Of a stretch of 33,301 bases of DNA, positions 15,001 to 18,000 are shown piece after piece; the first letter of the stretch is position 1; the number at the start of each line of letters is the position of its first letter. Source of the DNA: Escherichia coli (GTDB lineage Bacteria; Pseudomonadota; Gammaproteobacteria; Enterobacterales; Enterobacteriaceae); assembly GCF_002854065.1 (NCBI RefSeq), contig NZ_CP024149.1, one strand, 5' to 3'. The position numbers are program-made.

Positions 15001-18000
15001 TTGTTGAAGGATAAGGATAAAGACAAAAAAGATGAACATGGTGGCATTGGTACGCCAGCTACCCGCGCAGCCATTCTGGAAACGCTGAAGAAAAGAAACT
15101 ATATCACGCTGGAAAAAGGGAAACTTATTCCTACTGATACCGGATATGCGCTTATTGATGCCCTGCCTGGTATAGCGGTTAATCCTGATATGACAGCATT
15201 ATGGTCTGAAAAGCAGGCTGCCATAGAAAATGGCGACCTGACGGTTGAACAGTTTATTAATGATCTGTACGGTGAACTGACAGGCATGATTTCTGATGTT
15301 GACCTGGGCGAGATGAAGATTGAACCCGCTGCGCCAGCAGGGCAGTTTCAACGCCTGGACTCTCCCTGCCCTTCCTGTGGTAAACATATTGTTATCAGGC
15401 CGAAAGGTTATTTCTGTACCGGATGTGAATTTAAAATCTGGAGTGAGTTTTCTGGTAAGAAAATCACCCAGGCACAGGCCGAAAAACTGGTTAAATCAGG
15501 GAAAACCGATTTGATTAAGGGATTTAAAAAGAAAAGTGGTGGAACGTATGATACAGTTCTTGTCCTTGAGGATAAGAAAACAGGGAAGCTGGGTTTTCCG
15601 GCAAGGGCTAAGAAGTGAAAACAAAGCAGGAATGGCTTTTTCAGTTAAGAAAATGTACATCAAGAGATACTCTTGAAAAAGTTATTGAGATTAACCGTTA
15701 CAAACTGCCTTTATCAGAATCAGAGGCATTTTATTCTGCCGCAGATCATCGCCGAGCAGAACTGGTGATGAATAAACTTTATGATAAGGTGCCTTCCGGC
15801 GTCTGGAAGTACGTACACTAAATAAGAGGATTAATTATATGAGCGAACTGACTAAAGAAGATGAATACGGCATTATCAGCCGTACTATGATGAATATTCG
15901 TTCATTGCGTGTTTTTGCCCGTGAGATTGATTTTGAGCAGTTGCTCGAAATGCAGGAAAAGCTCAACGTTGTTATTGAAGAACGTCGTGAAGATGCTGAA
16001 CGTGAAGCGGCTGAACGCCAGGAACTTGAAGCCAAACGTCAGCAGGCCATTGAATACATCATATCTTTAGGTCTTGATCCCGAATCACTCCTTGCTCCTG
16101 TAACAGCAGATACAGTAAAAACCAGGCGGAAAGCCAAAGGCGGAGTAAGAAAGGCTAAATACCGCTTTAAGGATGAAAATGGCGAGATCAGAGAATGGTC
16201 TGGTAATGGCAAGCGTCCGCTTGCTTTACAGAAGCTGCTTGATGAGGGGCATTTCATGGAAGATTTCCTCATTGAGAAAACTAAGCCGGAACAGGCAGAA
16301 TAACCCGCCAGGTATACATCACACAGGGCACTGTTGCAAATAGTCGGTGGTGATAAACTTATCATCCCCTTTTGCTGATGGAGCTGCACATGAACCCATT
16401 CAAAGGCCGGCATTTTCAGCGTGACATCATTCTGTGGGCCGTACGCTGGTACTGCAAATACGGCATCAGTTACCGTGAGCTGCAGGAGATGCTGGCTGAA
16501 CGCGGAGTGAATGTCGATCACTCCACGATTTACCGCTGGGTTCAGCGTTATGCGCCTGAAATGGAAAAACGGCTGCGCTGGTACTGGCGTAACCCTTCCG
16601 ATCTTTGCCCGTGGCACATGGATGAAACCTACGTGAAGGTCAATGGCCGCTGGGCGTATCTGTACCGGGCCGTCGACAGCCGGGGCCGCACTGTCGATTT
16701 TTATCTCTCCTCCCGTCGTAACAGCAAAGCTGCATACCGGTTTCTGGGTAAAATCCTCAACAACGTGAAGAAGTGGCAGATCCCGCGATTCATCAACACG
16801 GATAAAGCGCCCGCCTATGGTCGCGCGCTTGCTCTGCTCAAACGCGAAGGCCGGTGCCCGTCTGACGTTGAACACCGACAGATTAAGTACCGGAACAACG
16901 TGATTGAATGCGATCATGGCAAACTGAAACGGATAATCGGCGCCACGCTGGGATTTAAATCCATGAAGACGGCTTACGCCACCATCAAAGGTATTGAGGT
17001 GATGCGTGCACTACGCAAAGGCCAGGCCTCAGCATTTTATTATGGTGATCCCCTGGGCGAAATGCGCCTGGTAAGCAGAGTTTTTGAAATGTAAGGCCTT
17101 TGAATAAGACAAAAGGCTGCCTCATCGCTAACTTTGCAACAGTGCCTCACACAGACATACACATAGGTATGTCTGTGTGACATACCTATGTACAGTGCCA
17201 GATGGCGTTGCTACGTGAAAAATAACCTACCCTACCCCTGCTTTTTTCGCAGATTTTACGTAGCACACCGTTGCTATAGCATTCATCTAAAAAGCTGAAT
17301 GTCCTTTTCTGTCGCTGTTGCATTTTAATTCACTGAAAAATATTGAGTAATGAAAATGCCGGTAACGCGTCAAGCTGTTGGCCAACGCGACAGGCAGTAT
17401 TGGAAGCAACAAAAAAAATGAAAGAAAAATCCCTCAAATGAAGGAGAAAAAACGGAACTACAGCCGAACGACAGGCACAAAAAAACCCGACTGGTAATCG
17501 GGCTTTTTTGCGTTTTCCAGTCTTGAGTTGGTGGCTCTGACCGGAGAAGGTTACTCTACACCTAACGTTTACATTTTATTCACTATGGTGCTGTAAAGCA
17601 ACTAAATGTGGTTAAGGAACCACATTTAGTGGTGTAACGGGTGTTTTGTGTAGCGTATAATCAGTCAGTTAGTCATGTAGTTGGCTTGCAATCCTGCTGT
17701 TCCCGTATCTGCGGGTATGAACGATTTTAAAGTCCTGGCTGGATAAACAGGTGGTGCTGTATTCGGTGCTCTGGCAGGAGGAGGTCACTCTACACCTAAC
17801 AATGCGAGAGAGCCGTTGTGACAGGCAGTGTATGAGCAAGCAACGGTGATTTCCTCCAGTTTTACTGGAGAAACGGATGATTAATATGTTAATCATCGTT
17901 CTCAGAGCTGTGGTCGCCGTTGCAAACGCGCTGATTGCAGTTCTGGAACTGATCCGCCAATTCATCGATTGATGACAACGGAAACGTAACTAAGGGCAGG

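Follow-up and report, generated by a model that had tools for sequence, protein, structure and literature searches.

Does a lone insertion sequence standing beside a resistance gene record one undisturbed insertion, or is it what a larger rearrangement left behind, and is it bound up with the gene? The question is raised by a copy of IS26 downstream of the plasmid hns gene in an mcr-1 plasmid of Escherichia coli (assembly GCF_002854065.1, contig NZ_CP024149.1). The window, that is, the stretch of DNA analyzed here, is the whole circular 33,301-bp IncX4 mcr-1 plasmid. A first-pass annotation had described a complete 820-bp IS26 starting 23 bp past the hns stop codon and flanked by a target site duplication (TSD) of 8 bp, and its values, coordinates included, proved exact. 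The insertion is real but already known: it has been published, and it is present in more than 200 public plasmids.

The empty site and the inserted element

The two flanks of IS26 were joined through a single copy of the 8-bp target, TCACACAG, and this reconstructed empty site was searched in PLSDB. The search revealed an uninterrupted site with one TCACACAG in 76 records, at least 41 of which matched at 100% over 240 bp, and the carriers included the mcr-free plasmids pSH146_32 and CP041105. When the window was aligned locally with CP041105, 1,326 nt left of the element and 3,256 nt right of it matched at 100.000%, and the two alignment blocks overlapped by exactly the 8 bp of the TSD. Because IS26-free relatives carry the flanks contiguously, with TCACACAG present once, these alignments support a simple insertion without any later IS26-mediated deletion or rearrangement adjacent to it. 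The earlier claims of an intact duplication and of no subsequent deletion are thus borne out, with flanks that are collinear with and 100% identical to IS26-free IncX4 backbones.

Within the window, after the hns stop codon TAA (16301-16303) come 23 bp (16304-16326), the final eight of which are TCACACAG, and IS26 then begins, with tnp26 reading in the same direction as hns. The repeat search returned the two TCACACAG copies as an 8-nt direct repeat at a spacing of 828 nt; the chance probability of an 8-bp match at two fixed positions is 4^-8 (about 1.5e-5). We considered whether the flank identity is nevertheless coincidental and IS26 what remains after a deletion, the resolution of a compound transposon or another larger rearrangement, since IS26 is often found without matching flanks after rearrangements and a third TCACACAG lies nearby, on the minus strand at 17173-17180. 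This reading is next to impossible, because the empty site with one 8-bp copy exists at full identity in the plasmids described above and both flanks align without gain or loss, and because the third copy, which brings the total in the window to three, is the complementary arm of a hairpin. A simple insertion remains the preferred reading.

That hairpin is part of the target itself. Its 5' arm received IS26, and to the right of the element the 14-bp arm is rebuilt by the TSD. In the empty site the stem gains six more pairs from positions 16310-16315, which brings it to 20 pairs, and the reconstructed site folded at -43.3 kcal/mol (z = -5.9). The empty site (16310-16326 joined to 17155-17200) is an unusually stable double hairpin directly after the hns stop, with the 14+6-bp stem followed by a second hairpin. 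The region 3' of hns varies among IncX4 sublineages, and many relatives of 97-98% identity stop matching near the hns stop; the 23-bp spacer between hns and IS26 reads CCCGCCAGG in the window and CCCGCTAGG or CCCGCCAAG in some relatives.

The inserted element is almost certainly canonical IS26 of the IS6/IS26 family, at a site with an intact 8-bp duplication. Its 14-nt terminal inverted repeats (TIRs) are 100% complementary and begin with GG, and its GC content is 52.4%, compared with 43-44% in the flanks. When the whole window was searched for the IS26 end pattern with up to 2 mismatches allowed, the pattern was found at two places only, so the element is a single copy, as the first-pass annotation had held: the circular plasmid has just one pair of IS26 ends. 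Every base of the 820 bp agrees with IS26 in four other plasmids inspected, and the right-hand IS26 copy of pHNEP129 is likewise 100% identical; we take the sequence to be that of the ISfinder/X00011 reference. At least 4,997 plasmid records match it at ≥99% identity. The IS26 whose transposase is annotated as WP_001067855.1, the annotation given in loci with an identical element, shares the 820-bp length, the TIRs, the 705-bp tnp26 and the 8-bp TSD with the window copy, and no difference was found.

The tnp26 product scored 164 bits against Pfam PF13610 (DDE_Tnp_IS240) and 275.6 bits against the NCBIfam IS6 transposase equivalog NF033587, for which the cut-off is 125. IS26 has been defined by a length of 820 bp and by perfect 14-bp TIRs starting with GG, and F4, F9, R49, W50, D78, D138 and E173 are experimentally important residues of Tnp26 (PMC8477213). 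All seven, four of them (F4, F9, R49 and W50) in the N-terminal helix-turn-helix and three catalytic (D78, D138 and E173), are kept in the translation. The presence of the catalytic and DNA-binding residues, together with DNA identical to canonical IS26, supports an intact Tnp26, in agreement with the earlier statement that the transposase carries no inactivating changes. The variant IS26-v1 is otherwise the same element but differs by three substitutions (G459A, G613A and G614A), and the Tnp26 G184N change enhances cointegration. Its hallmark, GG to AA at IS positions 613-614 (Gly184Asn), is absent from the window copy, in which bases 459, 613 and 614 are all G and position 184 is the wild-type Gly. 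Among the loci inspected, IS26-v1 was seen only in the left copy of pHNEP129 and in pSD11. The effect of G184N is mentioned in part in PMC8477213.

Table 1. Coordinates of the insertion and of neighboring features in the window.
Feature	Coordinates	Strand	Basis or remark
Plasmid hns, 154 aa (annotated as H-NS family protein in relatives)	15839-16303	+	Pfam PF22470 and PF00816
Left TSD copy, TCACACAG, 8 bp	16319-16326	+	Direct repeat; single in IS26-free relatives
IS26, complete, 820 bp	16327-17146	+	Sole copy in the replicon
Left inverted repeat (IRL), 14 bp, GGCACTGTTGCAAA	16327-16340	+	Repeat search, pattern search
tnp26, 705 bp including stop; 234-aa DDE transposase Tnp26	16390-17094	+	PF13610, NF033587, residue check
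Right inverted repeat (IRR), 14 bp, TTTGCAACAGTGCC	17133-17146	+	Repeat search, pattern search
Right TSD copy, TCACACAG, 8 bp	17147-17154	+	Direct repeat
Hairpin with perfect 14-bp stem, TCACACAGACATAC N6 GTATGTCTGTGTGA	17147-17180	+	Inverted repeat I1
AgrB-family antisense small RNA (sRNA) match	17477-17565	-	Rfam RF02891, 58.7 bits
Bidirectional terminator-like hairpin	17486-17510		In the AgrB-like sRNA region
dqlB, DinQ-like type I toxin open reading frame	17877-17972	+	
mcr-1-pap2 cassette, 2,602 bp, in DUF2806 gene	20403-23004		Alignment to mcr-free CP041105
mcr-1	20590-22215		Nearest resistance gene

Distribution of the insertion and its relation to mcr-1

To the left of IS26 lie topB, hha and hns on the plus strand; to the right, about 1.5 kb contain no annotated proteins except dqlB and are followed by parA/mipZ, the DUF2806 gene and mcr-1. 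Comparison of the window with pLHM10-1-MCR-1 (NZ_CP037906.1, 33,301 bp; typed as IncX4, MOBP and MPF_T) revealed a reverse-complement circular permutation with 3 mismatches. The window belongs to a 33.3-kb lineage marked by an IncX4 replicon and backbone, IS26 3' of hns and a DUF2806 gene that carries mcr-1-pap2. The segment running from hns through IS26 into the right flank was found in one piece in at least 205 PLSDB plasmids; counted singly, the left junction occurred in 239 records and the right one in 221. Carriers of the insertion span E. coli, Salmonella, Klebsiella and Enterobacter, with humans, animals, food and water as sources, and the site, orientation, TSD and IS sequence were identical in all loci inspected. 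Because at least 205 plasmids hold the identical insertion and all those inspected fall in the mcr-1 lineage, IS26 at this site appears to be an inherited lineage marker, neither a fresh event nor specific to the window plasmid.

The published mcr-1 IncX4 plasmids pLHM10-1-MCR-1, pMUB-MIN11-MCR, pICBEC79Hmcr and pYUAHP7-MCR/pYUYZP15-MCR have the same site, orientation and 8-bp repeat, with no relevant difference from the window, and the 8-bp direct repeats of this site have been published as CTGTGTGA, which is TCACACAG read from the opposite strand (PMC10832210). IS26 goes unmentioned in an analysis of IncX4 and mcr-1 (PMC5428312). One IncX4 plasmid of 49,695 bp (NZ_CP016550.1) contained two hns-IS26 left junctions, together with an mcr-1 gene interrupted by ISVsa5/IS10R; its double junction reflects either partial duplication or an artefact of assembly.

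The first-pass annotation had associated no resistance gene with this IS26, and this is true of the immediate flanks, which consist of hns and backbone; mcr-1 starts 3,443 bp past the right end of the element. A link between the two has been implied by the term 'IS26-parA-mcr-1-pap2 cassette', which is used for an arrangement called typical of IncX4 plasmids (PMC9204285), and all PLSDB plasmids in which IS26 was found at this site are of the mcr-1 lineage. From these observations IS26 might be taken as a resistance-associated part of an mcr-1 delivery unit instead of an independent insertion. We regard this as extremely unlikely. IS26 has its own perfect 8-bp TSD, and the plasmid offers no second copy that could close off a compound structure. 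The DNA that separates IS26 from the cassette (17147-20402, 3,256 bp) matches the IncX4 backbone of an IS26-free, mcr-free plasmid at 100% identity. Comparison with CP041105 further revealed the mcr-1-pap2 cassette as a separate clean insertion without target duplication. The cassette also occurs in IS26-free IncX4 plasmids: in the 33,858-bp mcr-1 lineage (p1493-1 type, PN42) it occupies the same backbone site in inverted orientation, and a different accessory block was seen near topB in the IS26-free mcr-1 plasmids inspected. The co-occurrence of IS26 and mcr-1 is best explained by shared descent. Because the intervening DNA is backbone and the cassette a separate insertion, the alignments suggest that IS26 did not mobilize mcr-1, and an independent simple insertion is retained as the reading of the locus.

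Origin of the insertion and later events at the resident IS26

A lone IS26 with an 8-bp TSD derives from a copy-in cointegrate that was resolved by host recombination and is not a direct product of transposition (PMC7885326). By this route, an IS26-bearing replicon and the IncX4 plasmid would have formed a copy-in (replicative) cointegrate at TCACACAG, with duplication of both the IS and its 8-bp target, and the two IS26 copies, in direct orientation, would then have served the host's homologous recombination to resolve the cointegrate, which left one IS26 with the 8-bp duplication. The insertion would have occurred in an ancestor of the ~33.3-kb mcr-1 IncX4 lineage, now spread globally, and would have been inherited unchanged thereafter. 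The resident IS26 would also stay a preferred docking point for IS26-bearing molecules, which may join it by targeted conservative cointegration or by homologous recombination.

The first-pass annotation had proposed such a hotspot role for further cointegration and gene acquisition. Untargeted copy-in proceeds at about 5e-7 and the targeted conservative reaction between two IS26 copies at about 8e-4, a roughly 1000-fold difference (PMC7885326), and because the targeted reaction is so much more frequent, it is supported that the resident IS26 would act as a hotspot. Published IS26 biology is here joined by derivatives: the comparison with relatives that had been proposed as a check yielded, in addition to the IS26-free records, three plasmids rearranged at this very IS26, namely pV163M, pCQ02-121 and pHNEP129.

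In pV163M, hns is followed by TCACACAG, IS26, an IS10R-aph(3')-Ia segment, a second IS26 and TCACACAG, with both outer TSD copies kept. This order has the signature expected of a translocatable unit added beside the resident IS26, and the kanamycin-resistance gene is natural to pV163M (PMC10269488). IS26 pseudo-compound transposons (Tn4352-like IS26-aphA1-IS26) are thus represented in pV163M by a structure built on the resident copy; the window, with one IS26 and no passenger, lacks the two or more direct IS26 copies and the passenger of such an array. The IncX3-X4 hybrid pCQ02-121, which carries blaNDM-5 and mcr-1, contains a single IS26 and only the right junction: its right flank is TCACACAGACATAC, and its left flank is a remnant of IncX3 cutA1, as found before IS26 in NDM-5 IncX3 plasmids.

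The third derivative, pHNEP129 (NZ_MT667261.1), has IS26-v1-cfr directly to the left of the resident IS26, and both TSD copies are kept. At positions 3103-6008 it reads, in order, the hns TAA, IS26-v1, a cfr segment, CCCGCCAAGTATACA joined to TCACACAG, IS26 and TCACACAG, such that the 23 bp that separate hns from IS26 in the window are placed here after cfr and before the resident IS26, not to the left of the new IS. This structure does not fit a simple targeted conservative product or a simple copy-in product, and the junction between cfr and the 23 bp is unique in PLSDB. A mis-assembly is possible, because pHNEP129 was assembled from short reads with gap closure by PCR. The cfr IncX4 plasmid pSD11 was also considered as a carrier of the insertion and was rejected, as its IS26-v1-cfr-IS26-v1 segment is located elsewhere, in a divergent backbone.

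Possible effects of the insertion and other repeats of the plasmid

Two convergent units, hns on the plus strand and the AgrB-like antisense sRNA on the minus strand, have their 3' ends on either side of IS26, which interrupts no gene. A consensus scan found no sigma-70-like hybrid promoter across either IS26 junction. The IS26 ends hold outward TTGCAA -35 boxes, for which inspection by eye gave weak -10 candidates, TATACC leftward and TACACA/CATACA rightward; a hybrid promoter from these boxes was rejected. The target hairpin was not called as a terminator, the nearest terminator-like site being the one in the AgrB-like sRNA region; because it has no T-run (U-tract in the transcript), it is not a canonical terminator. 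With no gene interrupted and no convincing hybrid promoter, the insertion is most likely near-neutral for the plasmid.

A non-neutral insertion would mean that the split hairpin changes expression of topB-hha-hns, of tnp26 or of the type I toxin-antitoxin locus and so contributes to the success of the lineage. Three observations point this way: IS26 entered the 5' arm of a very stable structure that immediately follows hns; tnp26 and hns read in the same direction with no terminator-like site between them; and among the mcr-1 IncX4 forms in PLSDB the IS26-bearing lineage is the commonest (205-239 records, against 76 empty sites of all kinds). We nevertheless consider it improbable, because the junctions offered no hybrid promoter beyond the weak -10 candidates, the hairpin lacks a U-tract and its 14-bp stem forms again on the right side of IS26, the AgrB-like sRNA with its terminator is left intact at a distance of more than 320 bp, and hitch-hiking with mcr-1 accounts equally well for the abundance. 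Highly unlikely as well is the version in which IS26, by parting hns from the structured element, would alter the topB-hha-hns 'stealth' operon or drive tnp26 by read-through, and would thereby aid the low cost and epidemic success of the lineage. Near-neutrality is therefore kept as the preferred reading.

To the right of IS26, the AgrB-like/dqlB pair makes up a type I toxin-antitoxin locus (17477-17972), which contains a 33-nt direct repeat (17534-17566 and 17768-17800) with 88% identity between copies.

Farther from the insertion, the plasmid has other repeats. A direct repeat of 300-425 bp with 99% identity (26332-26631 and 28412-28711, extending to about 26326-26750 and 28405-28830) flanks a J-domain gene block at a start-to-start distance of 2,080 bp. 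The 31,224-bp mcr-1 IncX4 variants, for example pICBEC79Hmcr, have no J-domain block and fall short of the 33,304-bp form by exactly 2,080 bp, which suggests that the shorter form may have lost the block by recombination between the direct repeats. An array of 22-bp iterons, with about seven tandem copies at 25555-25730 and one at 25406-25437, lies beside the replication initiator gene (24471-25343, minus strand), and the region 25406-25730 is presumably the IncX4 origin. The replication and maintenance region is bracketed by a 94-nt inverted repeat (23934-24027 and 30724-30817), the arms of which are 99% complementary and 6.7 kb apart.

Taken as a whole, the locus is read here as a simple, near-neutral and inherited insertion. 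No observation speaks against the identification of the element, and a few points limit the wider reading. The records with one junction in excess of the 205 may reflect splits at the record origin, true rearrangements or both. IS26 does divide a strongly structured element (z = -5.9) from hns, and read-through from hns into tnp26 could occur. The cointegrate-and-resolution route is drawn from the literature and is not displayed by the sequence itself, and the timing of IS26 relative to mcr-1 acquisition is likewise something we infer. A purpose-built 4,056-nt query of PLSDB revealed no plasmid that combines IS26 at this site with a clean mcr-empty site, the only hit over its full length being the engineered pV163M delta-mcr-1, which still carries pap2; on these PLSDB plasmids, either IS26 or mcr-1 may have been acquired first.

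As a discovery the insertion has little weight, since no IS of Gram-negative resistance plasmids is better known than IS26, and since this insertion has been published and is present in hundreds of IncX4 mcr-1 plasmids. It does provide a clean marker that separates the lineage with IS26 and a forward mcr-1 cassette from the lineage with no IS26 and an inverted cassette. It is also a documented entry point of an otherwise single-gene plasmid, which has gained aph(3')-Ia and cfr and has fused with an NDM-5 IncX3 plasmid at this IS26. The site is thus relevant to the surveillance of co-resistance to colistin and a carbapenem or linezolid.

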